A DNA stretch of 64,000 nt from a virus (IMGVR_UViG_3300045391_005020); one strand, 5' to 3'; counted from the stretch's first letter, positions 751-58,373 are shown. Translations and numbers: made by a program. Notes: generated by a model from the sequence alone, not told the origin.

Positions 751-1494
751 ATGCCTGTGGTCGAAACAGTCGGGCAGCGCTTTGGTCGTTTGACGGTTAT
801 CTCGGAGCACAACGTGCGCTCGCCGGGCGGCGGGTACCCTAAGCGGTGTCGAGTTAGATGTGATTGTGGCAATGAATATGAAACTTGGGCATCCACGTTA
901 TTCGGCCCCAATTGCCCAAAAAGCTGCGGTTGCCTGCGTCCGGACGGCGCGCTCGGGCCGAGCGACCGCGACTCTATAGTAGGTCAGAAATTTACCAAGC
1001 TACTGGTGCTTTCGCAGTGTAATGACGGGCATCCTTCGTGTGAGTGCCTGTGCGACTGTGGAAAGACAATTACAGCTAAACCATCCGCTCTTAAAAACGG
1101 TAATAAGGTGAGCTGTGGATGTTGGAAAAGAAGTGCCAGGAGAAAGACGCCGGAGGAGGCAGTCCCTGCCAGCCTGTGGCACGCATACAAGCAAGGCGCC
1201 TTACGTAGGGGTCTATCGTTCGATCTAACAAAAGACGAGTTCAAAGCCCTCATCCTATCGCCATGTCACTACTGCGGCGCCGTAGGAAGTTGCAAGACCA
1301 AGATACGCAAGCATGTTCTAGCGCGAAACGGGGTCGACCGCATCGATAGCGATCAGGGGTACTCCCGTACCAACTGCGTGCCATGTTGCGAAGACTGCAA
1401 CACCGCCAAGGACGATCTTCCAGTGGAGATGTTTTTGGGATGGGCCCATCGCGTTTCGGCCCACCAGGCCGGTCTCGTAAATACACTGGCCTAG
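751..1494 (+). CDS. HNH-family (homing-type) endonuclease, paralogue of upstream gene
   Basis: Two GQ(R/K)F..L.V...CxCDCG...SCGC modules plus CHYCG...NGVDRIDSDQGYSRTNCVPCCEDCNTAK. Confidence 0.85.
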   Translation: MPVVETVGQRFGRLTVISEHNVRSPGGGYPKRCRVRCDCGNEYETWASTLFGPNCPKSCGCLRPDGALGPSDRDSIVGQKFTKLLVLSQCNDGHPSCECLCDCGKTITAKPSALKNGNKVSCGCWKRSARRKTPEEAVPASLWHAYKQGALRRGLSFDLTKDEFKALILSPCHYCGAVGSCKTKIRKHVLARNGVDRIDSDQGYSRTNCVPCCEDCNTAKDDLPVEMFLGWAHRVSAHQAGLVNTLA

Positions 1495-1591: not shown

Positions 1592-2326
1592 ATGGCGGAG
1601 CAGCCCGACAGAATACAGGTAACCGCGGAAGAGCTGCGTGATGAGATGATCACGATCATGGCCGACCTGGTCATGGAGCGAGATGCCCTCAAGTTCGGCA
1701 AGTTCCTGCTGCGAGCCAATAAGTCGAGTCCGTACCAGATCGACGTCGGGGCCATGTGCCGCGGTCGCGATACCTTCACGATCGGCCGCGCCTACGCGCT
1801 TGCCATCAACCACAACTTCGGTCCAGATCTGAAGACTCTGGTCGGGGTTCCGGGCCGCGGAATCGCGATGGCGACTGTAGCCTCGTTCTACTACGCCCAC
1901 ATGTATAACTACGACTGCGCGTGGTCGTTTCCGAACCTCGCCGCGGCCAAACCGGACGAGCCGATCCCGTTCTGCGGCGCCCCGCTCGACGAAGAGTCGG
2001 CCGTGGTGATCGTCGATGACATCCTGTCCGACGGTACGGCGATCCGGGACACTATCGAGATGGTGAAGAAAACCGGCGCCAAGATTATGGGGGTCTGCTG
2101 CCTCATCGATCGCCGCGATCGCACAAAATCGAACCGGTTGGCTTCGACCGATATCGAACGCGAGACCGGCGTGCCGGTGGTCAGCTGCTGCACAGTCGCG
2201 GACCTCGTCCGTAAAATGCCTAGTTCGTACCTATCTGATGAAAAGCGCGAGCTGGTAATCAAGCACGTGACGGTGGAAACTGGTCCGCCCTTGCTACCGC
2301 CGTTCAATAAGCTGACGAACCTTTAG
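1592..2326 (+). CDS. pyrE: Orotate phosphoribosyltransferase-like type I PRTase (divergent)
   Basis: ALKFGKFLL...SPY N-terminal motif, PRPP-binding VVIVDDILSDGTAI, C-terminal GVCCLIDR; flexible catalytic loop not canonical. Confidence 0.7.
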   Translation: MAEQPDRIQVTAEELRDEMITIMADLVMERDALKFGKFLLRANKSSPYQIDVGAMCRGRDTFTIGRAYALAINHNFGPDLKTLVGVPGRGIAMATVASFYYAHMYNYDCAWSFPNLAAAKPDEPIPFCGAPLDEESAVVIVDDILSDGTAIRDTIEMVKKTGAKIMGVCCLIDRRDRTKSNRLASTDIERETGVPVVSCCTVADLVRKMPSSYLSDEKRELVIKHVTVETGPPLLPPFNKLTNL

Positions 2327-4755
2327 GCCTGACTGCGGGACCAGGCTCCGACCAGGTCCCACATGTTCTGGCTCACGATCCAGTGACCTACGTCGGATCC
2401 GACTAGCATTCCTGCCTGAGCTAGCTGCTTGGTCAGGCGCCCAATGTCCGCCGGCGCCAATACCGGGCTCGCAAATGCGGCCCTGACGTCAGCGTGTTCG
2501 ATCCTGATTCCGTCTTGGGTCTGCCGGATCGGCAAGATGTTCTCGTCGGCGAGTCTGCGGAGTAACCCGAGCGTCTTGGTTCCGATCGTGTGCTCAGACA
2601 GGATCCAGTTTGAATCCAATTGGGCAGCGCAGCTGAGCAGCAGGTGCTGTGGCCGGCTGAGGCTGACCACTGGTCCGACGATTTCGGCGATGCTGGTGAA
2701 GAAGCAGTCTGGTTTTATCAGGTCAGCGGTCGCGATCAGGATCGGGAGCGCCCGAAATACCCACCGGAGTGCCTGGAAGTCGCAGACGGATTCGACCGGG
2801 AGCCTGAGCCACTCGGGGTTCACCGCCAAGAGCTCGAACGAGCGCCGATCCAGCGACAGCATGACGTGCTTCGGCCCCGGATGGCGCATCAGTTCGACCA
2901 ACTTCTCATCCGACCATCGGCCCATAACCGGGAGGGGCCACATGGCTTCATTTTGGACGCGCTCGACCGAGGGATCGACTGAGGCCGACATCGCGAAGGC
3001 TTCGGCGGTGCGTTCCACCACGTGATTTGCCGACTGGACCGCGATGCAGAACGGTTGCTGGCCCGCATGGGTCCTGACCAGGTTGCCCAGCAGGGCCAAA
3101 ACCATCATGCAGAACCCTGGATCCAGGAATGCTTCCCACTCGGCGGGACTCAGGTTCTCCGGGTATGGGATATCGGGGCCTGCGACGCGCGACACCGCGT
3201 GCGAGACCGAATCCGAGTCGACCATGAAGCGCTGGAACCGCAGCACATCGCCTTCCCATCCGAACGGATGATCTGACGAGTAGGTCTTGATCGAGTCCTT
3301 GGAGAATTCGCGCCCGATATCGAGCAACCGAGCTCCCCACTTGGGTCCGTACCGGAACCACCCACCGTGCCTGGTGAGCAATTGCTCGAGCCACTTCACC
3401 GTTGCGGCTCCGCGGATCTTGGCTTTGTCTTCTTGGAACGGCACGACCTTGTCGTCGAACGACACGATGCCGCGCATGATCGAGTGACCCGACTTGGTGT
3501 CGTTGTGAATCTCGTCGATCCGGATCACCGCGTTGCTGACCAGCTTGCCATCCTGGGTCCAGCCGGATTTCGACTCGTCGATGCGGTCGCCATCAAATTC
3601 GATCGAGCGGCTGGTTGACGAATTACCGAAGTAGCGCGTCAGTTCGGCCGCGTCCTGGCCGGTGAAATGCGATTTGACCTGATTCTGCTCGGTGACGGTC
3701 AGACTCAGGTCTGCCGCACGTCGCGAACCTTCGGCGCCAGCACGTAGCAGGTAGGTTCCGATCGCCTGATAGGCCGGAACCGCAAGATTGGTCAGATGCC
3801 GGATCAGCGATTTCGACGTGTCCTTCTCGCGGTAGTCGGTCAGGAGCGAAAACTTCAAATCCCACTCCTGCACGGTGTGGGCGCCGTCATACCGGAGCGC
3901 CCGTTTGAGCCAGTGATGGATCGGCTGGTTATTCGATGATACCGGCAGGAACATAACGCGCTGATTCGCCAGCTGGTGTATCGGCTCTTCGTGACCAACC
4001 GGGATCGCGAACACCGTCATGCTGTTCTGATTGTCGACTGTTTGACGAACCATGAACCGCAAGGCGACTCGCGGGTCGTTGACCATCACGACTTGATCCT
4101 GCCCGATCCGGAGTGCATGTCCGTACGCGAGCGCCGCAGTGTAGCGCTGCAGTTTCACGAACATGTACCCCTGCGGGATCTTCTTGGGGTTCACCAGGTA
4201 GAGACCGACCAGACGGGACTGCTCCCAGACCGGTATCGCGAACGCGTGGTAGTTGCCCAGATCGGCCCGGAGCCGTTTCCGCTCCTCCTTGTCGAGGAAC
4301 AACTCCTCCAGGTCTGCCGCACCAAGGATCGAGTGGTTCCGTGCCAGGAGGTTTCCGTGGATCGCAAGGCTCATGCACCGAAGTTCGGTCAGGATCGCCT
4401 TCGCGGGCAGCGACATCCCTCCCTCAAGGCGCTTCTGGCCTTCCCGCCAGACCTTCAGGCAACGCTGGTTATAGTCCCGCTCCATCTGGTACGTGGACTG
4501 GCCAGCCTGGGTCATCTCAAGCCGCGCATCGATCTGGAGTTCGGCGACCGCCGCCGGCAGCTCCTGGCCGGATTTGCGCGCGTACAGCTCAACCACGTCC
4601 CCGATGAACCCGCACTGCTGGCAAATCAGGGTATCGGATCCCCGAACTTCTAACGCATCAACGGTTTGACACAAAGGGCATTGACACGAGAATGGTAGTA
4701 CATTCCGGTCACGGATTCCGCATTTTGCCAGAGCAAGGCTGAGGTCAATCTTCAT
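2323..4755 (-). CDS. Primase-like protein with N-terminal Zn finger, apparently degenerate TOPRIM and long C-terminal region
   Basis: CPLC...CQQCGFIGDVVELYA...AVAEL resembles the DnaG Zn-binding domain; FAIPVW...LVGL and YG...VVMV resemble the primase core; ATG 4755 (TTG 4767 alternative). Confidence 0.55.
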   Translation of the reverse strand: MKIDLSLALAKCGIRDRNVLPFSCQCPLCQTVDALEVRGSDTLICQQCGFIGDVVELYARKSGQELPAAVAELQIDARLEMTQAGQSTYQMERDYNQRCLKVWREGQKRLEGGMSLPAKAILTELRCMSLAIHGNLLARNHSILGAADLEELFLDKEERKRLRADLGNYHAFAIPVWEQSRLVGLYLVNPKKIPQGYMFVKLQRYTAALAYGHALRIGQDQVVMVNDPRVALRFMVRQTVDNQNSMTVFAIPVGHEEPIHQLANQRVMFLPVSSNNQPIHHWLKRALRYDGAHTVQEWDLKFSLLTDYREKDTSKSLIRHLTNLAVPAYQAIGTYLLRAGAEGSRRAADLSLTVTEQNQVKSHFTGQDAAELTRYFGNSSTSRSIEFDGDRIDESKSGWTQDGKLVSNAVIRIDEIHNDTKSGHSIMRGIVSFDDKVVPFQEDKAKIRGAATVKWLEQLLTRHGGWFRYGPKWGARLLDIGREFSKDSIKTYSSDHPFGWEGDVLRFQRFMVDSDSVSHAVSRVAGPDIPYPENLSPAEWEAFLDPGFCMMVLALLGNLVRTHAGQQPFCIAVQSANHVVERTAEAFAMSASVDPSVERVQNEAMWPLPVMGRWSDEKLVELMRHPGPKHVMLSLDRRSFELLAVNPEWLRLPVESVCDFQALRWVFRALPILIATADLIKPDCFFTSIAEIVGPVVSLSRPQHLLLSCAAQLDSNWILSEHTIGTKTLGLLRRLADENILPIRQTQDGIRIEHADVRAAFASPVLAPADIGRLTKQLAQAGMLVGSDVGHWIVSQNMWDLVGAWSRSQA

Positions 4756-6283
4756 GAACGCGATCAATTATCACAAGATGAGTCGCCTGCTGGCTGTAAC
4801 TGGCCGTCCTGCATATGTTAAGGTGGCCGGCGAGCAAGTCGACCCCGCAACTCCGGTGTATGCCGATCCCATCAAGAAGTTGTATCCCGTCCAGACCAAA
4901 GAAGCTACGTTCCTATCGTTTGTCAACGCTATTGATCAGAATGCTGACTCCCAGCAAATTCAGGAGATCCGCAAGTACGCGGCCTTCTGGAAAATCGAGG
5001 CTGACCTGGACGCCGCTGAGCAGGCCCTGATCGCCGACCGGACCGAGATGAGCCTGTCCGAGCTCCCCGACAGCGACTTTGCCCTGTGTCAGAAGCACGG
5101 CTCCGAAACGATCCGTAAATACGCCGCCGTCGACCCGACCACGACCGTCGAAGCCGCAATTGCGTTCTACGAGAACCGCACCCGCTACCCGCTCGAGTGG
5201 CGCAAGCAGGCCGCCGTGAACCTGCTGGCCCGCGCTGACCAGTTCGCGACACCGCTGCCGGCCTACGTCTCAGAATACCTCCACAAGGCCGCCGGCTACG
5301 CTGTCGCGACCACTGAAGCGATAGACCAGGCCCTCGGGGCCCGGATCGACCTGACGCCGGCGCGCGACCACGAGGCCCTCAACAAGATCGCGGTCGTCCT
5401 GAATAAGATCGCCGAGTCCGAAGAGCTCCGGTACAACACCGAGCTGGTCGCGGAAGTCCTGGGCGCGATGGATGAATACGATCGCGACATCAAACTCGCC
5501 CAGCATTACGAATCCGGCCGCCTTCCGCTCCCGGAAGAGATGCTGGCCATGACCGAAACCAGTCTCCAGAAGTACGCTGGTTGCCAGAACCGCATCGTGC
5601 GCCTCGTGAACGGCCATGAAGTCGACGTCGCCGATTTGTCGGTCGACGCGCTCGACGCGGTCGACGAGAAGCTCGCGGGCATGAGCCTGTCGAAGCTCGC
5701 CGAGGTTCTCCCGACTCTGCCAAAACCGGAAGCCGATCTCCTGATCGAGCTCCTCCCGGCTGCGCAGCACTGGAAGACGGCTGGCGACGAGACCAAGGCG
5801 GTCACTCCGGCCCCGACGCCGAATCCTGCTCCCGCTCCGGCCCCGACGCCGAATCCTGCTCCCGCGCCTGTGAATCCCAGCTTCGGTACTCCGGCCGCCG
5901 CGACCCCGGCACCGGTCACTCCGGCGCCAACCTCGGCCCCGGCGGTTCAGCCCGCCGCCCAGCCCGCGGCGACCCCGGTCGGCAACAATGCCTCGCCGGA
6001 TGAGTCGATCGATGACTACATCAACCGCATCAGCGCCCCCAAGACGGCGCCGGCGCCGACGATGAACAACACGCTCGACAACAGCACCGATATGGACGCC
6101 GACGCCGCGGCATTCGCTGCGAGTCCGGTGAAGAACTTCCAACCGGTCAAGCAGGTGGTCCCCGGCGCAACGCTTCCCAACGGCAACATCAAGGTTCCGC
6201 CCGGCAAGCTGTGGGTCGACACCCCAGAAGGCCGGCGCGCGACCGCTCGCGATCCGAACTTCCATCGCGGTTCGAACAAATAA
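4754..6283 (+). CDS. Hypothetical phage protein, helical K-x-A-rich body with Pro/Ala-rich tail; predicted internal head protein
   Basis: 509-aa ORF with phage-typical codon usage; 14 of 26 Lys in K-x-A context; start may be ATG 4778. Confidence 0.7.
   Translation: MNAINYHKMSRLLAVTGRPAYVKVAGEQVDPATPVYADPIKKLYPVQTKEATFLSFVNAIDQNADSQQIQEIRKYAAFWKIEADLDAAEQALIADRTEMSLSELPDSDFALCQKHGSETIRKYAAVDPTTTVEAAIAFYENRTRYPLEWRKQAAVNLLARADQFATPLPAYVSEYLHKAAGYAVATTEAIDQALGARIDLTPARDHEALNKIAVVLNKIAESEELRYNTELVAEVLGAMDEYDRDIKLAQHYESGRLPLPEEMLAMTETSLQKYAGCQNRIVRLVNGHEVDVADLSVDALDAVDEKLAGMSLSKLAEVLPTLPKPEADLLIELLPAAQHWKTAGDETKAVTPAPTPNPAPAPAPTPNPAPAPVNPSFGTPAAATPAPVTPAPTSAPAVQPAAQPAATPVGNNASPDESIDDYINRISAPKTAPAPTMNNTLDNSTDMDADAAAFAASPVKNFQPVKQVVPGATLPNGNIKVPPGKLWVDTPEGRRATARDPNFHRGSNK
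5805..5865 (+). repeat. 30-bp perfect tandem repeat x2 encoding PAPTPNPAPA
   Basis: ctccggccccgacgccgaatcctgctcccg occurs twice head-to-tail. Confidence 0.9.
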
Positions 6284-6286
6284 TCC

Positions 6287-6997
6287 GTGCAACACGCCAG
6301 CGACCAGCTTCGGCGCGTCGCTGGACAGTTCCTGTCCGGCGAGCGTGAAACCTACGCCACCGTCCTGTTGGGCATCCTGTTCCAGGTCTACGGCGCGGAG
6401 TGTTTGAACTGGGATCCGCTCACTCTCCAGGCGCAGATCACCGAGGATTTCGGGGTCCACATGCCTGATGTGGTGAATGATCAGCTGATGGCGATGGTGG
6501 CTGCTATGACCAGCGACACAGTATACACATCGGTCCACGCATTCGACCAAACCGTGAACGCGTTCTGCCGCGTCGGCGTCGATCACGATCAGGATATGCC
6601 GGCCCCGGAAGAAGTCGCTTGGACCGTGTTCGAACTGACTATGAACGATCCGGATCCGTACGGTCAGACCTCAGAGTGGCCGTTCAGCCCGGATATAGCG
6701 CGCTACGTTGGCGTGGTGCTGGCGGACGCTGGCCTGAAGCGCGCCCCCGAGACCCTAGAGTTTGCGATCATGCCCGAGTGGGTTCCGAAGAATCTCGGGG
6801 ATCACCCGCAAGAATTCGCCGAGGCCTATCATTCGGCTGAAGAACAGTCCGCCCAGATCGACCAGTTCGTCCAGAAGCACTTCCAGGTGCTCGTCAGCCA
6901 CCTGCACGAGATCGGGGTCGAACCGGCTCCGCCAGCCCTGGCACAAGCAGAGGATCTGCCTGAAGAAAGCCCGCTAGATCGGCTGCTTCCTGGCTGA
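6287..6997 (+). CDS. Hypothetical acidic phage protein
   Basis: 236-aa ORF starting 3 nt after the upstream stop, globular composition. Confidence 0.75.
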   Translation: MQHASDQLRRVAGQFLSGERETYATVLLGILFQVYGAECLNWDPLTLQAQITEDFGVHMPDVVNDQLMAMVAAMTSDTVYTSVHAFDQTVNAFCRVGVDHDQDMPAPEEVAWTVFELTMNDPDPYGQTSEWPFSPDIARYVGVVLADAGLKRAPETLEFAIMPEWVPKNLGDHPQEFAEAYHSAEEQSAQIDQFVQKHFQVLVSHLHEIGVEPAPPALAQAEDLPEESPLDRLLPG

Positions 6998-15589: not shown

Positions 15590-17043
15590 CAGTTCACCAT
15601 GATCACGGGATCAAAGTCAGTATAGGTCAGCCCTGGTCCCGTCGTATCCATGGTCTCCGTCGGGGCCTGGATGGCATCGTAGACCGTGGCCGAGGCGTCG
15701 GACGTCTCTGTAAGATTTAACAGATCATCCACGGGTTGTAACGCGGATTGTACCACCAGGAGGGTGCCAGCCGGCAGCAGGGTCTGGATTCTGGTCAGGA
15801 ACCCGGGTTCGAAGCCCAGGAAGTGTTCCGGTTTGACCACTACCACGATCAGGTTCTGGCCCACGATATTCTCGACCATGAACTTGAGCGGATTGACCGC
15901 GACTTCGTCGGAAATGTCGTCCACGCCGACCCATTCAGCCAGGAGCTTGCCGGCGTCGAGGCCGCGCTGGTGGGTCTGGGCCCAGAAGGCCTCGACCGCC
16001 GCCTGGTCGCCGTACACCGTGAACCGGACGTCCTGGGTCTCGGTATCGAACTGGAATGTTTCATCCACATTCGGGAAGACCAGGCTATTGGACCCCACGG
16101 AAAGGCCCGGCAGGGACGAATACGGCCGCGCTGAGCCACTCGAGCACTCGAAGACCTGCACGGTGTCGACCAGGAGCTGACCTGGCTCCAGAGCGTCTCC
16201 AACGGTCACCAAGGGGGTGGCATCGGCATGGGCCCGGTAGACCCGCTTGTCGGTCACGATCGCCAGGCCTTCGTCGTCGACCTCGATCAGCTCGACGGTT
16301 TCGTCGCCGACCGCGTCCTGGAGCCCGACCGAGCCCAGGATACCGCGCTGGAGGTCAGCGATCGACGGTCCCTGGACCAACATCGACCAAGCCGACAGGA
16401 GGGTCTTGCAGTAGGCTTCGCTGGACTGGCCGTGGATCCCCAGGACAGCTCCGTACCGGAGGAACGGGAGGTTCTCGTCCTGCTGGACGTTGCGGGCCCA
16501 CAGCAGGACTTGGTGGTCCACTACGGCGCCGGTCGAGTCGTAGATCGGGAGCCGCGGCAGGAGCTCGAACGGGTTCTGGGTGAACCGGATCACCTGGGTC
16601 TTGGGATCGAACTGGAAAGTCGAGGCATCAAAGACGTGGTCCGGATCCAGAATCTGGTCGACCAAGATTCCGATGCCTCGGATGTCGGCCGCAAGCTGCC
16701 ACGCGTAGGGCTGTGATTCGATCTGGCCGTACACCAAACCATCGCCATAGGTTCGTCCGGACCCATACCGGACCATATTCGTCTCTAGGGTCAATTCGGA
16801 CTCTAGGAGACGGATCAGGCGCCACTGGCGAGCCACGAACGGTTTGATGGTCTGGATCGATCCGGCCGACGCGGTCTCGATCGCTCGCAGGTACACGTCG
16901 GCGTTGACCTGCAGGTCGGCCCAGGTGTGCTTGCGCAGCAGTTCGGCGTCTTCCAGGTAGTCGCGCCAGAACGTCCCGAGCTGGTTGTACAGCTGATCGG
17001 GATTGCTGAGCGTACCGGTCAGGATCGGATCAGCGGGAAACAA
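15589..17043 (-). CDS. Baseplate wedge protein (gpI/gp7-like position)
   Basis: Directly after the baseplate J-like gene; C-terminal ..LLPAG motif. Confidence 0.55.
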   Translation of the reverse strand: MFPADPILTGTLSNPDQLYNQLGTFWRDYLEDAELLRKHTWADLQVNADVYLRAIETASAGSIQTIKPFVARQWRLIRLLESELTLETNMVRYGSGRTYGDGLVYGQIESQPYAWQLAADIRGIGILVDQILDPDHVFDASTFQFDPKTQVIRFTQNPFELLPRLPIYDSTGAVVDHQVLLWARNVQQDENLPFLRYGAVLGIHGQSSEAYCKTLLSAWSMLVQGPSIADLQRGILGSVGLQDAVGDETVELIEVDDEGLAIVTDKRVYRAHADATPLVTVGDALEPGQLLVDTVQVFECSSGSARPYSSLPGLSVGSNSLVFPNVDETFQFDTETQDVRFTVYGDQAAVEAFWAQTHQRGLDAGKLLAEWVGVDDISDEVAVNPLKFMVENIVGQNLIVVVVKPEHFLGFEPGFLTRIQTLLPAGTLLVVQSALQPVDDLLNLTETSDASATVYDAIQAPTETMDTTGPGLTYTDFDPVIMVN

Positions 17044-18637
17044 TGGTCAACTCCACGCTGGCGGGGTCGCAGCAGAAGTAGGTGTTGGCTGCCCCTATGC
17101 CGTTCTCGGGCGATTCGACGAGCGTCAGTTCGGGGCCCGTCTCGATCGCGTGGTCGGTCTGGTCTGGAGCCAAGATGGTTCCACGCAGCACGGTATTCAC
17201 GACGTCGCCACGCGGCACTAGGTCCGCGATGGCGCGGTGGATCACGAATGAGCTCAGGGACGAGGTGCCGAACGGAGTTTCGTTCACGGCCGCAACGATC
17301 GCGCTCCGAAGATCCGCGATCGTAGGAGGGACAACGCTGGACGGGATCCTGATCGTTGCCTGCACGCTGATTTGGCACGGCACGCCGGCGCGGACCAACA
17401 GATCTTGTCCGGCAGGCCGGCGCGTCGAATCGGTCACGTACGCGTTGACCGCATCGATCGAGGGCATGTAGACCAGATCGACGTCGTACTCGCGCTGTTC
17501 ATTGAGCGTATACGGCGCTTCGCCGGTGGTGTCGATGAACAGAACGTTCAATGTCGCGTACGCCGAGTAGGCCGCGTCTTGCGCGGTCACGAACGTCGGT
17601 TGGTACAGCGGCTCGGTCGAGACCCCGATCGTGACGGATTCCGGCTGATTGCCGCCCAGTGCCGACAGGCCCGCGGCCCGAATCGCAGTGACCCGGTACA
17701 CGCCCGAGCTGTCAGCACGGGGAATTGAGAGCAGCACGCGCTGCGCCGACGCCTCCACGACGGTGCCGGTCATCCGGAGCGTCTTGGTGCGGGGGAACTC
17801 AGTCGTGCGAACGTAGATGTCTTGCTTGCCGCCTTGGCTGATGCCGAACAGGTTTCCAGCATCGCGAACCATCAGCGGACTTCCGACGCCGATCACGGCA
17901 GCGGTCGTTCCTGGGAACGCGTCTGCCAGGCTGGCCTGTATGTGCTCGGGTCCGGCCAGGACTTTCGCGGTGATGCCGGCCGCGGCGCGGGCCAGCAACT
18001 CCTCGTTGGTTTCGCGGGTGTCGCCGCCTTCGAAATCGGCCGCGACGATCGCTTCTTCCATACCGGTCAGCGGATCGGTGATGGTCAGGACCGTGTCGGC
18101 CAGCAGCCGGCCGTCAGAGCCGGTCTTCTGGGCGGTCACCGAGATGGTGAACTCGTAGCGGTTGTCCGAACGGAGGATCAGGCGGCGTACGTTGGCGCTC
18201 TCTTGAACCCCGACCGAGTCCGGAGCGTAGATCCGGTAGTCCACGGTAGTCGCGAAGGCTTGGTTGTTGTAGGTGAACGCGAAACCAGCCGGGATCTGGT
18301 ACGGGATCGCGGCCGATACGATGATCCGGACCGGGCCGCTCGCGGCGGTTGCGTCACGGCGCACGATGAAGTAGTTCGAGACCAGTCGGTCGACTTCCTC
18401 GTCGGTCACGGTCACAATGTTGTCCGAGATGGCCTGCAGGCTCATCGAGTTCGACAGCGACACCAGGCGGGCCTGGTGGCCAGCCGCCAGCAATGCTTCG
18501 GGTTCAACCAGGAGACCGTCGAGGGCGGAACCAGGCGAAACGTCGAGGTTCGGTTTGGATTCGACCAGGATTGATTTCACCAATTCGCGATTGGAGTCGA
18601 GCTCAGTCAGCGAAACGGATGTGACAAGGTCAGTCAT
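17030..18637 (-). CDS. Baseplate J-like wedge protein
   Basis: DVSPGSALDGLL, R..AT.ASG.V, IPAG..F, VTAQKTG..G, FEGG..RETNEEL..R motifs. Confidence 0.85.
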   Translation of the reverse strand: MTDLVTSVSLTELDSNRELVKSILVESKPNLDVSPGSALDGLLVEPEALLAAGHQARLVSLSNSMSLQAISDNIVTVTDEEVDRLVSNYFIVRRDATAASGPVRIIVSAAIPYQIPAGFAFTYNNQAFATTVDYRIYAPDSVGVQESANVRRLILRSDNRYEFTISVTAQKTGSDGRLLADTVLTITDPLTGMEEAIVAADFEGGDTRETNEELLARAAAGITAKVLAGPEHIQASLADAFPGTTAAVIGVGSPLMVRDAGNLFGISQGGKQDIYVRTTEFPRTKTLRMTGTVVEASAQRVLLSIPRADSSGVYRVTAIRAAGLSALGGNQPESVTIGVSTEPLYQPTFVTAQDAAYSAYATLNVLFIDTTGEAPYTLNEQREYDVDLVYMPSIDAVNAYVTDSTRRPAGQDLLVRAGVPCQISVQATIRIPSSVVPPTIADLRSAIVAAVNETPFGTSSLSSFVIHRAIADLVPRGDVVNTVLRGTILAPDQTDHAIETGPELTLVESPENGIGAANTYFCCDPASVELTIVSR

Positions 18638-43296: not shown

Positions 43297-46200
43297 TTAG
43301 ATGATGTGCCAGTTGGTGCCGTCGCTTTGGACGGTGGTGGCGTCGTACTGATCGGTGATCGGAATCGACGACTGACCGTCAATGTTTCCGCTCGTCGCTG
43401 TAATGTTGAGCGTGTTGGCCGAGGCCGTCTTCTTAATCACGAACATGCGACCCGTATGACTCGACGCCGCCGGTAGCGTCGCGGTCAGGGTCGCTGAGGT
43501 GGTATCGAACAGGACCGTGTGGTCTGTTTCGATCAGCGAGTAGTTGCCCGACTTGGACGAGATCGCCTGAACCCAGCCGGTACCCTTGATGCTTCCGATA
43601 ACCTGGAGCAGGTTGACGGAGTCGTCGGTCGACGTTCCGAGCAGCAGTCTACCGCTGGTCGTAAACATCGCGCGATAGGTGTTGTTGGTCAGGAAGCCGA
43701 TGCCGGTGGTGGACTGGAGATGCAGTGCCGACCCGCCTGCGTTGGCCGTGTTGTTTCCGCCGTTGGTGAAGACAAAGCCCGCGTTCGAGGTGATATCGTT
43801 GCTGAGACGCAGCGCAGTCGTCGCGCTGCTTCCGGTGCTGGTGTTCTCGATCGTGAGAAGATTGAGACCGCCGTTGTTTGCTCCGGTACCAATCATGGCG
43901 CCGGTTACCGTCATCGTGGATGAGCCGTTATTCCATGTGAAGGCTGACGACGCCCCGAATGCACCGGAGTTGTTATACTGGATCTGGGTGTTCGATCCGG
44001 CTGGCGTCGAGCCCGATCCATTGGATGCTGCAGTGATGCGGCCCTTGGCATCGACCGTGATGTTTGCGCTGGTGAACGAACCGACGTTCGAGTTGACCGT
44101 CGCTAGCGTGGTGGCGACCGAGCCAGCCGACGTCGTGATATCGCCCGTGAGGGCCGGCATGCGCGCGGCCAACAAGGTGCCGGCATTGAGGTTGCCGGCG
44201 TCGCGATAGAACGAGCCGTTCTGTCCGCCCAGTAGTTCGACGTTCAGATTGCTGACCTGAGTCGTGCTAGCGATAACCAGCGGAGCCGTTCCGGTGCTGA
44301 CAGTGGAGGTGATCTGACCGCTCGAGCTGACCGCTCCCGCTGTCAGGGTTCCGCCGTTCAGGTTCAGCGGAGATGCGCCACCCGAGGCATAGAGACCAAG
44401 GTTGATCAGCGCTGTGCGGAGATCAGTCGTGTTGGTCGGCTGTACAACCGCGCTTGCGCCAAAGAAACCAAGCATTGCGGCGGTGCCGCTGGCTTCAGCA
44501 CGGATGCACTCGCGTGCGGCAGTGTCGTATGCGGAGAGAGTGAGCCGCGCTTTTCTGGTAGCGTCAGTAGCTGTTGCCCAAGACGACGAGATAAATGCCT
44601 GGTCTCGATCATTCGTCGTGTCTGACTTAGCGCGTAGCGAGATACCCGAGCCGAAACCAGTTGTCGGCGTTCCCGAGCTATTGTGTGCGGCGATGATTGT
44701 GTTGGTTGCCGTGTTGGTGGCCGAGTCGCTCACGGTAAGCGATGCCGCGGATGTCGATCCACTTCCCGTTATGGCGATAGATCCGCCCGAGGCCGACAAG
44801 GTTGTAGCATTAAGCGTTGTGAAGGTTGCAGCGCCCGGCGTTCCGCCGCCGATTGTTCCGGGAGACGCGAAGGTCGCGCCGCTGAGCGACGAGGCATTCA
44901 GATTCGCTACGTTGGTCGTGCTAGCGACGACGAAAGGTGCTGTACCGGTCGAGACCGTAGAAGTGATCTGGCCGGAAGCCGACAGCGTCGTGAACGTACC
45001 GGAGCCAGGGGTGCCGTTACCGATTGAACCCGGCGACGCAAAGGTCGCCCCGTTCAGCAAGTTTGCGTTCAGGTTCGCGACGACAGTGGTGCTCGCGACA
45101 GTCATCGGCGCGGTGCCGGTGGCCTGCGTCAGGTTAAGCGTCGTCATTCGGGATTCGCCGTTGACGATAAGGAATGTGGAGGCCACGTCTGTCGTGGTGT
45201 TGATCAACAGGTGGCCGCTGCTGTTCAGCGTCATCCGTTTCGTCGGCGACACACTACCAGCGCCGGCGTTCGTGTAGAATTCGACCTGACCAGGAACGGT
45301 CGTTGAGTTATTTATCGTGCCAGACGGACTCACGGCCAAGCGGATTTCACCAACCTGGACGTAGTTCAGGCCGTCAGCGGCCCAGCCGCTCAACCCAAGA
45401 ACGGGATCGCTGTTGTTAACAACAGTCGGAGCGCCAGTAAGGCCAGTCGAGCGATTCTTGAAGCACTGAATCTGTGCGAAGTTTTGATTCGCACCGTTCA
45501 CGATGTAGGAGGCCAGCGCCTGGGCCGAATTGGTGGCCACGTAGCCGTGTTGCGGAGTACCAATGATCGCCGTTAGCGCAGCGTTGAACGAAGCGCCCGT
45601 GCTGCCGCTGATGAACGGATCGACATTATTGATGCTGACACCGGTGATGGTGCCGCCCGTGATCGAGACGTTGTCGGAGGCCTGAGTCGAGATTGTCCCA
45701 AGACCAAGCGTCCCTCTCGCGACCGAATTCGACGTATCGTCGAGCAGGCTTCGGGCAAATGGTGTGCAGGTGATCTCTTCGATCACGCCCGCTCCGGCGC
45801 TCGAACGACCGAGTAATTTATCCGTCGCGCTAACGTCCTGAATCTTAGAGTACGTGACGGTGCTGTTCGCTAGCTTGGCACCGGTAATCCCGAGATCCTT
45901 GACGCGAAGGATGTTCGAGTTGATTTCGATCGTAGAGCCATCGACGTTGACCGAGAACTGATTACCAGTCAGGGTGAGACCCGACCCGGCCGTGTAGGTT
46001 CCGGCGCCGCTGAACTGCGTGAAGGTGATCGGGTCGGTACCGAGAACGCCGCCCGTATTGGATGTGCAGACCCAGCCAGTGTTGTCGTTGGTCGTACCTT
46101 GTTCGACGAACACGAAAGCGGCCGGAGCTTCAGGATACGTGTCCATATCGAGAGCACGGGTCCACGAACCCGACGCGACCACGTAGATGCCGTTGTTTTC

Positions 46201-47322
46201 CGTCAGGGTCTGGTTCTTGACCAGTACGCGGTTACCAACGATCAGCGAAACGCCGTCAACGGTCTGAGTTCCCGAGAGTGTGATGTTCGCGGTTGTAGCG
46301 GCCCTTACCGAATCCTTGGCGTCCAGGCCCTGCACCCTTGCATCGACGTACGCTTTGGTCGCGGCATCTTGCGGGCTGACCGGATCCAAGAGATTAGTCA
46401 GGAGCTGGCTGTTCCAGCTGACCGATGAAAGAGGCGCGGCCATCTGATCGAGACGGCTGAGACGGACCTGCGTATCGAAATCGCTAATCGTCGACGCGGG
46501 TTGCGCGTTGATGTGATTGGAGCGGTCGAGGTAGTAAGCGCCGTTGTGAAGCTGGAGAGTATCGGCGTCGTTTGTGCCGGTGTGGTTGGCTCGGTCGAGA
46601 TAATACGCACCGTCTTGGTTTTCGAGCAGCGAGGCGTTGCTCGCAGTTCCCGTAATTCCACCAGTCGCCGACAGCGTAGTGAAGTAGCCAGGTGCCGGAT
46701 TAGTGCTTCCGATATCAGGAGGGGACGCCAGTGCGTTTGCGAGGTCGTCAGCGACTATGAATCTGAAACCAGGCGCTGCATTGGCGCCGCTCACTGGTCC
46801 GGCGAACACGCGATTTGCACCGGTCGTTGACTGACCAGTACCGCCATTCGCAACGGCCAGCTGACCGGTGAGGGTCGAAACCGACTGAGTTCCAGTGTGA
46901 TTAGCGCGGCTCAAGTAGTAGGCGCCGTTCTGACCTTGCAGAAGAGCAGAGTCAGCAGCGTTGGTCGCGTTCGTGGCAGTATCGGCGTTACCGAACAGGT
47001 TTCCGGTCACATCGCCGGTCACGTCACCCGTAAGGTTGCCTGTCACGTCGCCAGTCAGATCGCCTGCGAACTCATCGGCGGCAGCCTGTCCTTGAACGTA
47101 TATACCGGCGGTGGTGATGGCCAGCCGCTCCATGCCCAAAACAACAAAGCCCATCTTCTCCGCACTGACGGTGCGGTCGAAGTAGTAGCCGATCCGGCCC
47201 GAATCCGTGTGGGCCGTGGTCGCGTAGTTGTTGTTGCTCAGCGGGGCGGCAACGGCGAGCGACGAGGCGCTGCCGAGGATACCGCTACGAATGCCGAGAC
47301 GAGCTAAGAGCGACTGTTCCAT
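43297..47322 (-). CDS. Long tail fibre protein 1
   Basis: 1341 aa Gly/Thr/Ser/Asn-rich; DAATKAYVD, VRAATTANITLSG.QTVDGV...RVLVKNQ....NGIY module, internal repeats, C-terminal SDGTNW. Confidence 0.88.
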   Translation of the reverse strand: MEQSLLARLGIRSGILGSASSLAVAAPLSNNNYATTAHTDSGRIGYYFDRTVSAEKMGFVVLGMERLAITTAGIYVQGQAAADEFAGDLTGDVTGNLTGDVTGDVTGNLFGNADTATNATNAADSALLQGQNGAYYLSRANHTGTQSVSTLTGQLAVANGGTGQSTTGANRVFAGPVSGANAAPGFRFIVADDLANALASPPDIGSTNPAPGYFTTLSATGGITGTASNASLLENQDGAYYLDRANHTGTNDADTLQLHNGAYYLDRSNHINAQPASTISDFDTQVRLSRLDQMAAPLSSVSWNSQLLTNLLDPVSPQDAATKAYVDARVQGLDAKDSVRAATTANITLSGTQTVDGVSLIVGNRVLVKNQTLTENNGIYVVASGSWTRALDMDTYPEAPAAFVFVEQGTTNDNTGWVCTSNTGGVLGTDPITFTQFSGAGTYTAGSGLTLTGNQFSVNVDGSTIEINSNILRVKDLGITGAKLANSTVTYSKIQDVSATDKLLGRSSAGAGVIEEITCTPFARSLLDDTSNSVARGTLGLGTISTQASDNVSITGGTITGVSINNVDPFISGSTGASFNAALTAIIGTPQHGYVATNSAQALASYIVNGANQNFAQIQCFKNRSTGLTGAPTVVNNSDPVLGLSGWAADGLNYVQVGEIRLAVSPSGTINNSTTVPGQVEFYTNAGAGSVSPTKRMTLNSSGHLLINTTTDVASTFLIVNGESRMTTLNLTQATGTAPMTVASTTVVANLNANLLNGATFASPGSIGNGTPGSGTFTTLSASGQITSTVSTGTAPFVVASTTNVANLNASSLSGATFASPGTIGGGTPGAATFTTLNATTLSASGGSIAITGSGSTSAASLTVSDSATNTATNTIIAAHNSSGTPTTGFGSGISLRAKSDTTNDRDQAFISSSWATATDATRKARLTLSAYDTAARECIRAEASGTAAMLGFFGASAVVQPTNTTDLRTALINLGLYASGGASPLNLNGGTLTAGAVSSSGQITSTVSTGTAPLVIASTTQVSNLNVELLGGQNGSFYRDAGNLNAGTLLAARMPALTGDITTSAGSVATTLATVNSNVGSFTSANITVDAKGRITAASNGSGSTPAGSNTQIQYNNSGAFGASSAFTWNNGSSTMTVTGAMIGTGANNGGLNLLTIENTSTGSSATTALRLSNDITSNAGFVFTNGGNNTANAGGSALHLQSTTGIGFLTNNTYRAMFTTSGRLLLGTSTDDSVNLLQVIGSIKGTGWVQAISSKSGNYSLIETDHTVLFDTTSATLTATLPAASSHTGRMFVIKKTASANTLNITATSGNIDGQSSIPITDQYDATTVQSDGTNWHII

Positions 47323-53473: not shown

Positions 53474-54409
53474 TCAGCTCGTTGCGATGCGGACGCGGGC
53501 GACAGCGGCAGGGTTGCCGATCGTGGCGCCGCGCTCACAGTACGCGTAGAACTCCAGGTTGAACGCCTTCTTGTCGACGTACATCGTGGTGTCTTCGAGC
53601 ACGTAGCTCTTGCCGAGGAACTCGGGGCTGGCGAACAACCAGAACTCCGACTCACCGACCAGCTCGTGCTTGTTGGTGATGACCCAGTTGACGCCCAGCA
53701 GTTTCTTCTGCTGGAAGCCGTCGACGAACATCGACTCGCTGAGGTCGCCGCCGGCCGTGTCGCGGCCGAACTTGGCAACATCTTCGATCGTGATGTTGTT
53801 GCAGAGGATCGTGACCGCTTCGAGGTGCGCGAAGGTCCGCTTCAGGATCTTCTTCATCTCGAAGAGCGAGGAACGGGTGATGCCGTTCGCGTCGACGATC
53901 TTCTTGTTCTGGATGATGCCCGTCTCAGGGACGGTCGAGCCTTCGGAGCCGACGATGCTCTGGCACGCGGCCAGCATCTTGCGGTCGAACTCGAAATCCA
54001 TGTCGAGGATCGCGTTGTCCGAGATCACCTGGCGGATGTCCATTCCGTACGTGCGGAGTTCGGACATGTCCTTGGTGAATTTCGGGGTGACGATGCGATC
54101 GAAGTACACCGGGTAGCGGTCGCCGCGGAAGTAGTACTGGATCGGCTGCTGGCCGAGCGGGATCGTGATGGCGGCCGGCGAATTCGGTTCGCGTTCGACC
54201 AGCTTCACGTTCTTGTCGGTGTTGAGCTGCGGGGTGAGTTCGTCATCACCGATCTTCACCGCGGGCATGATCTTCTCGAAGAAGCTGCTTTCGCGGATGC
54301 GGATGCGGGTGAAATCCGTCACCATATCGGCGGCTTCTTTGATCTGCCCGGCTTCGAGCATACCATAAAAAGCGCGGTTTGACTGTTGTGCGCTGACTTT
54401 AGTGGTCAT
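53474..54409 (-). CDS. Major capsid protein (HK97 fold)
   Basis: 311 aa after protease-scaffold-decoration genes, followed by a strong terminator; RESSF..KI.P N-arm, E-loop-like EREP, C-terminal G.TIGN..AV. Confidence 0.82.
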   Translation of the reverse strand: MTTKVSAQQSNRAFYGMLEAGQIKEAADMVTDFTRIRIRESSFFEKIMPAVKIGDDELTPQLNTDKNVKLVEREPNSPAAITIPLGQQPIQYYFRGDRYPVYFDRIVTPKFTKDMSELRTYGMDIRQVISDNAILDMDFEFDRKMLAACQSIVGSEGSTVPETGIIQNKKIVDANGITRSSLFEMKKILKRTFAHLEAVTILCNNITIEDVAKFGRDTAGGDLSESMFVDGFQQKKLLGVNWVITNKHELVGESEFWLFASPEFLGKSYVLEDTTMYVDKKAFNLEFYAYCERGATIGNPAAVARVRIATS

Positions 54410-55022: not shown

Positions 55023-55466
55023 TTACCGGGCGCCAGGCAGACGATTCAGGGCGGAAACCGTGTGGCGATCCCACACGTCGTCTGCCGTCTCTGGTTTGGT
55101 CTCGTTGATCACAACGGTGCCGACCTTGGGGGCCGAATCGATGTAATCCGCGACTTTGGTGAGCGCGTCGAGAGCCTTCTCATGGCTCAGGACATTGGCC
55201 GCGAACTGGTCGCGACGCTCAGGGGAGGAGAGCAGGCCGCGATCGAACAGCTTGTCCGCGGCCGTCTTGGCCAGCGGGGCGATCTTGGCTGCCGCTTCTT
55301 GGGCTGCCTGATCGCGCTTCGAGCCGGCGTCTTTCGACGAGCTCAGCTCAGCTGCGAGCTTGGTGTTCTCTTCCGTTTTGGTTGTGAGGGCTGACTCGAG
55401 CTCGGCGATTTTGGTCGCCTGGGCTTCGATGGTGTCAGCAGCCTGCTTGATCAGTTTGGCGCTCAT
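55023..55466 (-). CDS. Small coiled-coil scaffold-like protein
   Basis: 147 aa helical; 7 of 14 Lys in K-x-A context. Confidence 0.65.
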   Translation of the reverse strand: MSAKLIKQAADTIEAQATKIAELESALTTKTEENTKLAAELSSSKDAGSKRDQAAQEAAAKIAPLAKTAADKLFDRGLLSSPERRDQFAANVLSHEKALDALTKVADYIDSAPKVGTVVINETKPETADDVWDRHTVSALNRLPGAR

Positions 55467-55474
55467 GGGGTCCC

Positions 55475-56986
55475 TTATTTCGCAGCCGCGGTTTCGAGTT
55501 CGGCGACCTTGCTCAGGATCTGCCGGCGGACTTCGATCCGCGCAGCCGCCATCTTGGCAGCGGCGGGGTCACTGTGGTGATGAGCCTTCTGGGCCATGAG
55601 GGCCTTGAGGTCATCCATGGTCAGGCCCATCTCGTGCAGGACTTGCTCGAGGGCCTGTTGCTCTTCCGGGCTCTTGGGGGCGAGAACCGACGAGTCGTTC
55701 GTCATGGCGTCAGCCGGGTGAGCGGCAGGGGCGTCATGCTTCGGAGCATCGTGCGCGGGAGCATCATGAGGGGGCAACGCTTCGGCTTTCTTCTCGCCCT
55801 TGTCGGCCGGAAGATCCTTCTTGGCGTTGTTGTCGACTTCAGCTTTGGTACCGACCGCTTCGCCTTCGGCAGGCTTCAGCTCGGCCTTCTGGACCTTCGG
55901 GGCTTCGATGCCGCCTTCAGCGTCTTTGGTACCGTCTTCGACGTTGTCGCCGATCATGCCTTCCGCGATCTTGACCGCGTAGGCGTAACCAGCATCGACC
56001 GCCTCCTTGTGGAGGGTGGCGATCTTTTGGAGATAGAGGGGATGCTCGGGGCCGATGTTGGCCGCGGCCATCTTGGCTTCGAGGCCTGGATCTTCGACCA
56101 TCTCGCCGCCGGCAGCAGCCGGATCAGCGGCAGGAGCCGGAGCGCCCATCGGGGCCGGGGCACCCATCGGAGCAGGAGCCGCGCCGCCAGCTGCAGCGGC
56201 CGGATCGCCGGCAGGAGCAGCAGCGCCGCCCGCGCCGTGCAGTTCCTGCATGGCCTGGGTCAGCTCTTGTTCGCTGATCGCGCCGCTCTGGACGGCTTCG
56301 AGCAGAATCTTTTCAGCATCTTCCTCGGAGAGAGCGCCGGATTGAATGGCCTGCATGAGGCCATCGGCCGACTGGTCGGCAACAGCGGGATCGGCCATTC
56401 CGGCCGCAACCTTGTTGGTCGCGCGGGCCTGCTTGACCAGGAATTTCTCCAGGCCGCTCAGCTCGCGGGTCTCTTCGGAAGCTTTCTTATTGAGGATCGC
56501 AGCCAGCTTGGCTTCCGCTTTCGCGGTGTCGGGCTTCGCCGGCTCTTCAGCTTTTTTTGCGGAGGCTTCCATTTCGGAAGCGACCTTGCGCAGTTCTTCG
56601 ACCAGGGCCGACGCGGTCTTCTTGTCGTCGCCCTTGATCCCGCCTTCGGGGCCGTTGGCGGCTTCGTGTTTCACTTCGAGCTCAGCGCCCTCGGTGCCCT
56701 TCTGGCCGTCAGTCGAAACCGCGGTCGCGCCGTCGGTCGACATTTCGAGCGAAGCGCCGGACGGGTTGGTCTTGGCGCCGCCGTCGACCATCGCCTTGGT
56801 GCCCTTCGCCGCTTCAGACTTGTTCGACGCCATCTGGGCGCCGGTCTCGACCGCTTTGGTACCATCTTCGGCGCCGTCGCCGGGAGAGGCGGTTTTGACC
56901 GCAGCTTCAGCGGTCTTCTTGTGATCATCGCCAACCTTGTTGATCAACGTGTTCAGGCGCTCGAGGATTTGCTTGCGGTGCGACAT
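55475..56986 (-). CDS. Low-complexity scaffold/internal core protein
   Basis: Ala/Glu/Lys/Pro-rich, between protease and MCP; ATG 56986 has an AGGA SD; many K-x-A motifs. Confidence 0.7.
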   Translation of the reverse strand: MSHRKQILERLNTLINKVGDDHKKTAEAAVKTASPGDGAEDGTKAVETGAQMASNKSEAAKGTKAMVDGGAKTNPSGASLEMSTDGATAVSTDGQKGTEGAELEVKHEAANGPEGGIKGDDKKTASALVEELRKVASEMEASAKKAEEPAKPDTAKAEAKLAAILNKKASEETRELSGLEKFLVKQARATNKVAAGMADPAVADQSADGLMQAIQSGALSEEDAEKILLEAVQSGAISEQELTQAMQELHGAGGAAAPAGDPAAAAGGAAPAPMGAPAPMGAPAPAADPAAAGGEMVEDPGLEAKMAAANIGPEHPLYLQKIATLHKEAVDAGYAYAVKIAEGMIGDNVEDGTKDAEGGIEAPKVQKAELKPAEGEAVGTKAEVDNNAKKDLPADKGEKKAEALPPHDAPAHDAPKHDAPAAHPADAMTNDSSVLAPKSPEEQQALEQVLHEMGLTMDDLKALMAQKAHHHSDPAAAKMAAARIEVRRQILSKVAELETAAAK

Positions 56987-57015
56987 TGGGGTGGGTTCCT
57001 GATGATCTGGTGTAA

Positions 57016-57044
57016 AAATTACAGGGGTCAGTTTAGACACGCAA
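57016..57044 (-). promoter_or_regulatory. Putative promoter TTGCGT-N17-TAATTT for the scaffold-capsid operon
   Basis: Spacer GTC-N6-GACCC shared with 61836-61864. Confidence 0.55.
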
Positions 57045-58373
57045 GTCGTTACTTGCGGCAACAGCGGTTAGGACGGCTTCGTCCGCTCGGTTGCTTGGAT
57101 ATGCAGCGAAAGCCAGCTTGTAATGCAGATACAATCGCGAGAGCCCGAGATGCTCGGCGCGATCGATTGCGATCCCGGCCGACTTGACTGAATCGGCTGG
57201 TTTCATGATCGTGATGCGAACAATTCGAGCCCCGACCGGTTGCGCCTTCATCGACGCCTTCTCGTTCAGCTCGGACGCAGTATCTTCACCGAAGTCCAGA
57301 TTTGACACGTCGTTGTGTCCATCCAGTGAGGACATCTCGGGATCCTGTTCTTCCAGGAGTCCACTGAAGCCGCCCTGCACATCGGGTTCGCCGCACATGC
57401 AGGCCAACTTGGATTGGCCGACGATGATCTCGGTGAAATCCTGGAACGACAGCATGTGACCAGCGCGGTGAAGGGTGGTCAGCACCGCTTCAACTCCGTG
57501 CAAATCTGCTGCCTGCTTGATCTGTTTGACCGCGCGATCCGAAAGCTTCATCGGACCCGCGCCCGACACGGCCTTGCCGTGACCCGCGACGCGCTTCTCA
57601 ATTTCAGCCAACCGGACGAGGGTCGCCTTCTTGACCTGATCGTCGTCGAGCCCGTACGCCTCTGCCAATTCGTGGCCGCCAATCACGCCATTTTGTGACG
57701 CGACCTTGGCCAGCGCGTACCCGATCCTGTCGGCCGGCTTGTAGACCGTGCTGATGTCGAAGTACTTCGGGTTCGGATTCTGCATGTAGATCTGGCGACC
57801 GTCCGCCAGCACTTCACCCAGCTTGGTCTTGATGTGATCGCAGTGGTGGCGCGCGGTCGGGGCCTTATGGCCGCAATAGCTGCAAACGTCGTAGTCCTGC
57901 TTGGAACCCATCGAAACCGGAATGTCTTCACCCCGCGCGAACGCGTCGAGTTCTTCTGCGTACTTCGTGTTGTCGAGTGCGATCAGAAGTTCGATGCGGC
58001 GCATGTCCGGATTGTGGGCAGTCGCCAGCACTTCGCCGGTTTTCAGGATCGGCGAGTGGTTCTTGTGGTTCTTGAAAACGTGACCGTTTTCTTTGAATCC
58101 AGTATGGGCCGTGACATTGTCTTTTTCGCTGAAGCCGTCGCAGTTGCGGTTCGGGCCGTACGCTTCTTCGTCGCCGACCGCGAGCACGTGCAGAACCGAG
58201 TGGCCCTTCACGCCGCCTTCGTCGGCGATCTTCTGCAGAGTCTTGCTGAATAGTCCATCGGCCGCTCGCTTCTCGAGCCAGCCCGCGTCGACGCCGCGGC
58301 GATGCAGCGGAACCAACGCGACGTTAAGATCGTTGAAGTCGTACGAGTCGGTGAGGATCAGTTTGCGAATCAT
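57033..58373 (-). CDS. Putative prohead (capsid maturation) protease
   Basis: N.N.D.F, VF.NH.N (His), VSMG (Ser), CSYCG...C.H Zn site, FDIS.V..PAD; upstream of scaffold and MCP. Confidence 0.72.
   Translation of the reverse strand: MIRKLILTDSYDFNDLNVALVPLHRRGVDAGWLEKRAADGLFSKTLQKIADEGGVKGHSVLHVLAVGDEEAYGPNRNCDGFSEKDNVTAHTGFKENGHVFKNHKNHSPILKTGEVLATAHNPDMRRIELLIALDNTKYAEELDAFARGEDIPVSMGSKQDYDVCSYCGHKAPTARHHCDHIKTKLGEVLADGRQIYMQNPNPKYFDISTVYKPADRIGYALAKVASQNGVIGGHELAEAYGLDDDQVKKATLVRLAEIEKRVAGHGKAVSGAGPMKLSDRAVKQIKQAADLHGVEAVLTTLHRAGHMLSFQDFTEIIVGQSKLACMCGEPDVQGGFSGLLEEQDPEMSSLDGHNDVSNLDFGEDTASELNEKASMKAQPVGARIVRITIMKPADSVKSAGIAIDRAEHLGLSRLYLHYKLAFAAYPSNRADEAVLTAVAASNDLRV

Follow-up and report, generated by a model that had tools for sequence, protein, structure and literature searches.

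The window examined here, 64,000 nucleotides (nt) of the virus IMGVR_UViG_3300045391_005020, corresponds in reverse complement to an end of a viral contig of 148.6 kilobases (kb) that is estimated to be 74% complete. The contigs of its relatives measure 155-215 kb, and hence the source is a jumbo phage. Near the start of the window, on the plus strand, the open reading frame (ORF) at 4754-6283 codes for a protein of 509 amino acids (the target), founder of a large unannotated jumbo-phage family and rich in the pattern lysine, any residue, alanine (K-x-A). The minus strand, from about 7 kb to 64 kb, carries the structural module, with a baseplate wedge gene (17030-18637), the tail fibres (38-47 kb) and the head module (52-64 kb). 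At the far end of this module, and convergent with it, the target and a following gene of 236 amino acids make up a small islet of two plus-strand genes. A preliminary description, made from the sequence of the window, had presented the target as an orphan gene on the strand opposite to the head cluster, about 50 kb away from it and next to replication-type genes. This picture holds, since the nearest K-x-A-rich ORF of the head module is 48.7 kb off, the structural genes are on the other strand, and the neighbour of the target is a primase-helicase-like gene (2323-4755, minus strand).

Fourteen of the 26 lysines of the target belong to a K-x-A (residues 23, 49, 74, 122, 151, 178, 211, 218, 247, 273, 306, 314, 341, and 430), while 4.3 are expected from composition (binomial p = 1.5e-5), and as many as 14 were reached in only one of 20,000 shuffled sequences. 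The tripeptides are KVA, KEA, KYA (three times), KQA, KAA, KIA (twice), KLA (three times), and KTA (twice), and on recount both this list and the number 14 of 26 match the preliminary description exactly. The excess is confined to residues 1-345, with 13 of 19 lysines against 2.9 expected; in the tail only one of seven lysines is in a K-x-A (1.3 expected). In an AlphaFold2 model built on 15 homologues, the predicted local distance difference test score (pLDDT) is 80-94 over most of a conserved, mostly helical body (residues 1-340, nt 4754-5773). This body holds 12 K-x-A, one per approximately 26 residues, whose Lys codons start at nt 4820, 4898, 4973, 5117, 5204, 5285, 5384, 5405, 5492, 5570, 5669, and 5693. 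The confident helical region stops, and pLDDT values below 50 start, at residue 341, so that K341-T-A343 (nt 5774-5782) sits on the boundary, where the preliminary description had already placed a KTA. What follows is a Pro/Ala-rich tail predicted to be disordered (residues 344-509, nt 5783-6280) with a single K-x-A at K430 (nt 6041-6049).

About 190 ORFs were called on the 148.6-kb contig, and each was tested for an excess of K-x-A. Apart from the target, enrichment was confined to four or five ORFs that adjoin one another in the head module at 55-61.8 kb, all on the minus strand. They are a K-x-A-rich protein of 147 amino acids (55023-55466; 7 of 14 Lys, p = 0.009), an Ala/Glu/Lys/Pro-rich scaffold-like protein of 528 amino acids beside the protease (55475-57061; 18 of 49, p = 0.007), the head maturation protease itself, of 446 amino acids (57033-58373; 11 of 31, p = 3.5e-4), a protein of 485 amino acids (59322-60779; 13 of 35, p = 4.9e-4), and one of 67 amino acids (61588-61791; 3 of 5, p = 0.065). 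The target has the lowest p-value on the contig, which bears out the earlier statement that it carries the signature most strongly. All the remaining ORFs together gave 168 K-x-A against approximately 165 expected, a ratio of observed to expected (O/E) of 1.02. Among gapped pairs, K-x-A was the most enriched in the five head ORFs (O/E 2.35). Within the target family its O/E was 3.94, whereas R-x-A (0.62), E-x-A (0.91) and A-x-K (0.61) all stayed below 1, so that Ala-rich helices in general do not account for the signal. In 30% of the sites a Leu precedes the Lys by two residues, three times the background, and the Ala tends to be followed by A, S, G, or E (15, 6, 8, and 14 times, respectively, at 66 K-x-A sites of proteins of the window). 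These flanks suggest a longer motif, a hydrophobic residue-x-K-x-A and then A/S/G/E.

Two further ORFs deserve mention here. One of 917 amino acids (window-equivalent 79606-82359, minus strand; 12 of 53 Lys, p = 0.03), at a great distance from the head module, is a borderline case and may be a further substrate candidate. The other, of 316 amino acids (58370-59320, minus strand), between the protease and the 485-residue protein, contains a segment, hydrophobic and rich in Gly, that may cross a membrane. It carries a single K-x-A, at residues 5-7 (F-E-K-L-A and then A-E-D), as if only a very short N-terminal peptide were removed.

The same restriction was seen in two relatives from IMG/VR, one complete (G003, 191.5 kb with terminal repeats, 63% GC) and one of 155.6 kb and 47% GC (G004), whose target homologue is only 25% identical. 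In both, the only ORFs with K-x-A enriched at p < 0.01 were the target homologue and those flanking the protease, and the repetition of the pattern at 47% GC rules out a DNA-level or GC-driven artefact. The distance between the target homologue and the head module is 29 kb in the first and 55 kb in the second. Farther away, Salmonella phage Arash and Vibrio phage D69 have K-x-A-rich proteins around the protease, with a sharper L/M-x-K-x-A-S/A/G motif, and phage G gp19 (8 of 32 Lys) and Catera gp94 (18 of 72 Lys) are also enriched. The K-x-A hypothesis, for which the target had been put forward as an independent test, passes it, as in three genomes the motif is common only to it and to head-module proteins around the maturation protease. 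Paralogy between the target and the other K-x-A-rich proteins was considered and discarded, since hhalign comparisons of the family profile with the 485-residue head protein and Arash gp220 returned probabilities of 0.1-0.2%. There is no homology between the target and these proteins, and therefore the motif is common to unrelated proteins.

A word-indexed search retrieved 14 homologues of the target with 34-64% identity, and a full profile search 1501 cluster representatives at E <= 1e-3 (242 at E <= 1e-30). Neither the homologue records nor the cluster look-ups gave a name for any member. In nearly every one of 156 members examined, no pair was more enriched than K-x-A. The sites at K23, K122, K178, and K273 are invariant in the 15 closest sequences, and the first of them, K23-x-A25, occurs in 83% of the 156 members and in every one of the 14 aligned close homologues whose sequence includes the N-terminus. 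Conservation in homologues, which had been proposed as a check of the motif, was therefore found both as family-wide enrichment and as invariant sites. However, the K-x-A of the family are spread over approximately 200 alignment columns, which indicates turnover of the sites. Lysines in columns where Lys is rare (less than 5%, or 5-15%) have Ala at +2 more often (23% and 34%; p = 1e-14 and 1e-73, respectively) than the 12-13% expected, a monotonic trend, part of which may reflect misaligned conserved sites. Selection acts on the K-x-A motif itself besides fixed positions.

Searches for a known relative of the target were unproductive. There was no match in PHROGs or Pfam (the latter even at E <= 10), nor by tblastn and megablast in 50,697 phage records. 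The phage itself is known from metagenomes only, and neither these records nor those of Arash and D69 revealed a cultured phage with a member of the family. A sequence profile search of the PDB gave nothing meaningful and Foldseek against the PDB nothing at E <= 0.001; the best VIA-align score (Z 6.9), on a three-helix segment, is at noise level for helical proteins. Among viral predicted structures, only two uncharacterised models matched. Two Atlas searches placed a viral cluster of 156 amino acids near residues 1-104 or 1-162 of the target (TM score 0.53-0.59 by the small protein), and only 19% of the members of that cluster carry DUF6582 (PF20223). The segment D-F-A-L ... R-K-Y-A-A-x-D of the target resembles the motif of this domain, but its hidden Markov model missed the target, and everything else on the contig, at E <= 10 (gathering threshold 27.3 bits), and DUF6582 is no more than a lead. 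No paper mentioning DUF6582 was found in the literature.

The conserved unit of the family covers approximately 310-340 residues and ends in an LPTLP...DADLL segment. Of the 87 members with a clear LPTLP, 41 carry a tail of more than 45 residues, and 42 end at most 25 residues after the motif. The tail is variable between lineages and absent in about half of the family, so the conserved function must lie in the body. The proposal of the preliminary description that the tail is removed at maturation is only partly borne out: 38 of the 41 tail-bearing members keep a K-x-A 8-27 residues past LPTLP, frequently in the form P-K-T-A-A (K-x-G or K-x-S in the remaining three), but the tail is optional, and beyond the junction K-x-A is not enriched (19 observed, 26.8 expected). 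A similar layout is found in the 485-residue head-module protein, with 13 K-x-A in residues 1-340 and none in 341-485.

The ORF at 57033-58373, at the centre of this pattern, matches the head maturation protease family phrog_18299 (E = 3.9e-10). It is 35% identical to Arash gp222, a structural protein, and to its homologue in Vibrio phage D69, and 31% identical to phage G gp19, and it also matches gp94 of cluster C mycobacteriophages. A model of its residues 1-270 (predicted TM score 0.69) superimposes on T4 gp21 (5jbl_A) with Z 10.5 and a root mean square deviation of 3.0 Å over 141 of 165 residues. The next matches are the proteases of varicella-zoster virus (Z 7.2) and human cytomegalovirus (Z 5.2), followed by unrelated folds at Z <= 4.7. 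This ORF is a maturation protease of the T4 gp21/assemblin fold. Among its homologues, H103 and S154 are invariant and H62 nearly so. Two invariant motifs, K212-P-A and K223-V-A, lie in a low-confidence (disordered) linker just past the last strand of the catalytic domain, and from this linker onward the O/E of K-x-A in 76 protease homologues is 3.96. In another relative (G002 from IMG/VR, 180,134 bases; loci L024 and L026; P0214), the protease is split by an intein (PF14890) right after the invariant PVSMG, which holds the presumed catalytic Ser154. Inteins are often inserted at active sites.

The major capsid protein (MCP) of 311 amino acids (53474-54409, minus strand) is a full-length homologue of Arash gp226 (E = 2e-28), which in turn matches the major head protein family phrog_2522. 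It has an N-terminal K24-E-A26 (nt 54332-54340) that aligns with the K-E-A of gp226. The MCPs of the window, the two IMG/VR relatives, Arash, and D69 all have one aligned K-x-A at residues 24-29, and in the 47% GC relative it is the sole K-x-A of the protein. This is the classical position for the removal of an N-terminal peptide by a prohead protease.

Our preferred explanation, to which we assign a probability of roughly 0.55, is that the target is a prohead component and a substrate of the gp21/assemblin-fold protease of this phage, with K-x-A as the recognition motif; being a substrate of that protease, it would be placed in the prohead. The target would join the assembling prohead and be processed there by the protease, which would read a hydrophobic residue-x-K-x-A and then A, S, G, or E. 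The cut would most likely fall after the Ala, with Lys at P3, Ala at P1, a small residue at P1' and Leu at P5. We assign Lys to P3 and Ala to P1 because the known proteases of this fold read P3-x-P1, and the alternating residues of the motif would face the enzyme in an extended strand. Cleavage after the Lys may be the other possible bond, a cut to which tryptic proteomics would be blind.

By function, the closest known proteins are the substrates of T4 gp21 and of the phiKZ gp175 and SPN3US gp245 proteases. The cleavage sites are L/I-x-E for T4 gp21 and V/L/I-x-A followed by S for the herpesvirus assemblins, and among the substrates of gp21 the T4 internal proteins (IPI-III) and Alt have their genes outside the head cluster. 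The T4 system (scaffold gp22, gp67, gp68, IPI-III, and Alt) has the same protease fold as the ORF at 57033-58373, a three-residue P3-x-P1 motif repeated in core proteins and protease, as K-x-A is here, and, in the internal proteins and Alt, genes off the head cluster like that of the target. It differs in the motif itself, and in that the target has no sequence or fold similarity to any T4 core protein and carries its sites along a folded body of 340 residues instead of in a short N-terminal targeting peptide. The herpesvirus assemblins, in a comparison drawn from established knowledge, belong to the same fold family and have the Ala at P1 and small P1' proposed here, but P3 is aliphatic instead of Lys, and there are one or two sites instead of a dozen. 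Because it is encoded on the other strand, beside a primase-helicase-like gene and 48.7 kb away from the head module, the target cannot be classed as a scaffolding protein by position.

The phages of the phiKZ gp175 and SPN3US gp245 proteases are also jumbo phages with multisubunit RNA polymerase genes. These proteases cut at S/A/G-x-E, and N-terminal propeptides with several copies of the motif are removed from the head proteins, of which the C-terminal part stays (PMC10052503). Such a propeptide layout resembles that of the target, with its 12 body sites, junction, and unenriched tail, as well as that of the 485-residue head protein. However, the motif is a different one, no homologue of the target family exists in those phages (by tblastn in the phage records searched), and half of the target family is devoid of any C-terminal part. 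In our proposal, the helical body (residues 1-340) would be chopped into small peptides, serving as a sacrificial core or targeting module like the T4 prohead core proteins, and in tail-bearing members a cut at K341-T-A343 would free the tail from the body. By analogy with the 485-residue head protein and the phiKZ/SPN3US propeptides, the body is likely to be the part destroyed, and the tail would be spared or released, not discarded.

The primase-helicase-like gene at 2323-4755 is the divergent partner of the target and is poor in K-x-A (1 of 31 Lys). Its Atlas score was 0.96, with 202 features shared with clusters of the DnaG zinc ribbon, Toprim, and DUF927, which we take as a lead. A head-to-head partner of 748-888 amino acids is kept even beside distant members of the family. 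The ATG of the target and that of the primase-helicase-like gene overlap in the palindrome CATG (window 4751-4757), an overlap retained in relatives L014, L015, and L017, and the Shine-Dalgarno sequence of the target (GAGG) falls within the first codons of its neighbour. On the other side, 4 nt past the stop codon of the target, is the acidic 236-residue protein (6287-6997, plus strand), with one of its three lysines in a K-x-A and no enrichment. It gave no family match in Pfam or PHROG and no usable Atlas match; relatives L002-L004 have a gene of 226 amino acids in the same place.

The 148.6-kb contig has 20 copies of (A)ACAATRG-N2-3-TTGAC(T), a promoter-like element that often has an AT-rich hexamer behind it. 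The copies lie mostly in intergenic regions 30-130 nt upstream of genes, and the element may represent a promoter class of this phage. The copies in the window are all on the minus strand (4922-4934, 28682, 47827, and 61872), with others beyond it. Genes preceded by the element include those of the head module at 61588-61791 and 61879-64044 and the primase-helicase-like gene, whose copy (CAATAG-N2-TTGAC, 4922-4934) lies inside the coding sequence of the target, faces the primase-helicase-like gene and is 167 nt upstream of it.

Several other features of the region were recorded. Two tandem HNH/endonuclease VII-like paralogues (3-749 and 751-1494, plus strand; PHROG E = 2e-12 and 8e-22) are followed by a phosphoribosyltransferase-domain protein (1592-2326, plus strand; PF00156, E = 6e-10). 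Bases 1-24 of the window, ending in a run of 14 G, are absent from the contig, which ends at window position 25, and are probably an assembly or adapter artefact. A protein of 1341 amino acids (43297-47322, minus strand) strongly matches head decoration/virion structural families over residues 260-520 (phrog_2647, E = 2e-61) and, more weakly, tail-fibre families. Just upstream of the head module, beyond the end of the window, are large ORFs similar to the beta/beta' subunits of multisubunit RNA polymerases (window-equivalent 64112-66079 and 66907-71313, minus strand), one of them with a NADFDGD motif. RNA polymerase subunits are annotated in the same neighbourhood in Arash, where they were reported as the most abundant proteins of the particle preparation.

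A number of points weigh against a role of the target as a prohead substrate. The analysis shows the enrichment of K-x-A and how specific it is, its conservation and turnover among homologues, its confinement to the head module and the target in three genomes, the fold of the protease, and the conserved N-terminal site of the MCP; that K-x-A is cleaved, which bond is cut, that the target enters the prohead, and what the released parts do are inferred. In the literature, we found no report of a K-x-A cleavage motif, so it is possibly new and stands without outside support; the papers on Arash, phage G and jumbo capsids contain no cleavage-site data. None of the copies of the promoter-like element along the contig precedes the target, no promoter element common to the target and the head genes was found, and a sigma-70-like match upstream of the target (10 of 12 positions) is at chance level. 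The profile of the target family found no match in the whole records of Arash and D69; as these phages have the protease clade and the motif, the target is not a universal need of the protease system. The body is predicted to be well folded, with most of the K-x-A within predicted helices or a strand of the AlphaFold2 model. The sites invariant among the closest homologues would also fit a structural role, and the conserved head-to-head pairing with the primase-helicase-like gene hints at a link to replication.

Some of these points would be accommodated if K-x-A were a docking or targeting motif that is not cleaved, its repeated copies acting as a multivalent signal that attaches proteins to the scaffold, the inner surface of the capsid or the protease, with the target packaged largely intact. 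The restriction of the motif to the head-module proteins and the target would be expected in such a case, as would a folded body with many sites in helices. The proteome of Arash (trypsin-based, 116 of 272 proteins) also gave coverages of 81-100% for the K-x-A-rich gp220, gp223, and gp225, in a sample that held many non-structural proteins too. However, we consider it unlikely, since docking does not account for the invariant sites of the protease being exactly in the linker after the catalytic domain, for the single conserved site of the MCP at the classical N-terminal processing position, or for the junction site of the tail-bearing members, which looks like a processing point. In addition, the P5/P3/P1 alternation of L-x-K-x-A suits binding as a beta-strand in the groove of a protease.

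Somewhat less probable still is that the target is a replication-associated partner of the primase-helicase, K-x-A being a structural quirk of its helical fold. The paired genes with their overlapping start codons, the distance of 29-55 kb to the head module in three genomes, the positional invariance of several sites, and the absence of the family from Arash and D69 despite their protease would all be easily understood. A quirk of the fold is difficult to reconcile with turnover over approximately 200 columns in which even lysines of rare columns have Ala at +2, with the strict requirement for Lys and Ala (R-x-A at 0.62), or with a junction site that is conserved while the sequence of the tail varies. 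Nor would it explain why, in three proteomes, the enrichment of the motif extends to unrelated head proteins but to no other protein, not even the primase partner, with its single K-x-A. That K-x-A marks lysines for modification or cross-linking (methylation, acylation, or isopeptide bonds) by an enzyme other than a protease seems very improbable, because, although a strict preference for Lys over Arg is expected of epsilon-amino chemistry and the motif is confined to functionally related proteins, the head module yielded no candidate for a modifying enzyme, the motif accompanies this clade of proteases, within the protease proteins too, even between phages that are very remote from each other, and the sites (N-terminal arm of the MCP, linker after the catalytic domain, and body-tail junction) are typical processing points.

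Beyond the target itself, K-x-A could be an undescribed specificity of a widespread protease clade, extending from RNA-polymerase-encoding jumbo phages of 150-215 kb to Arash and Vibrio phage D69, with phage G and the cluster C mycobacteriophages as possible further members. The target family would then be a conserved sacrificial core protein encoded beside the primase, by which some lineages deliver a variable C-terminal cargo into the capsid. We offer this wider scenario tentatively, as a possibility with slightly less than even odds.

If K-x-A is indeed the cleavage motif, the substrates of the head protease would be predictable from sequence alone across a large uncultured clade of jumbo phages, as they are from L/I-x-E in T4 and from S/A/G-x-E in the phiKZ-like phages. 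K-x-A, with Lys at P3 and Ala at P1, would be a third kind of specificity for proteases of the assemblin fold. The mature MCP would begin after Ala26, and after Ala29 in the cultured phages Arash and Vibrio phage D69. Furthermore, an unannotated family of approximately 1500 clusters would receive its first role, and a head component could hide beside replication genes and yet be found by its motif signature.

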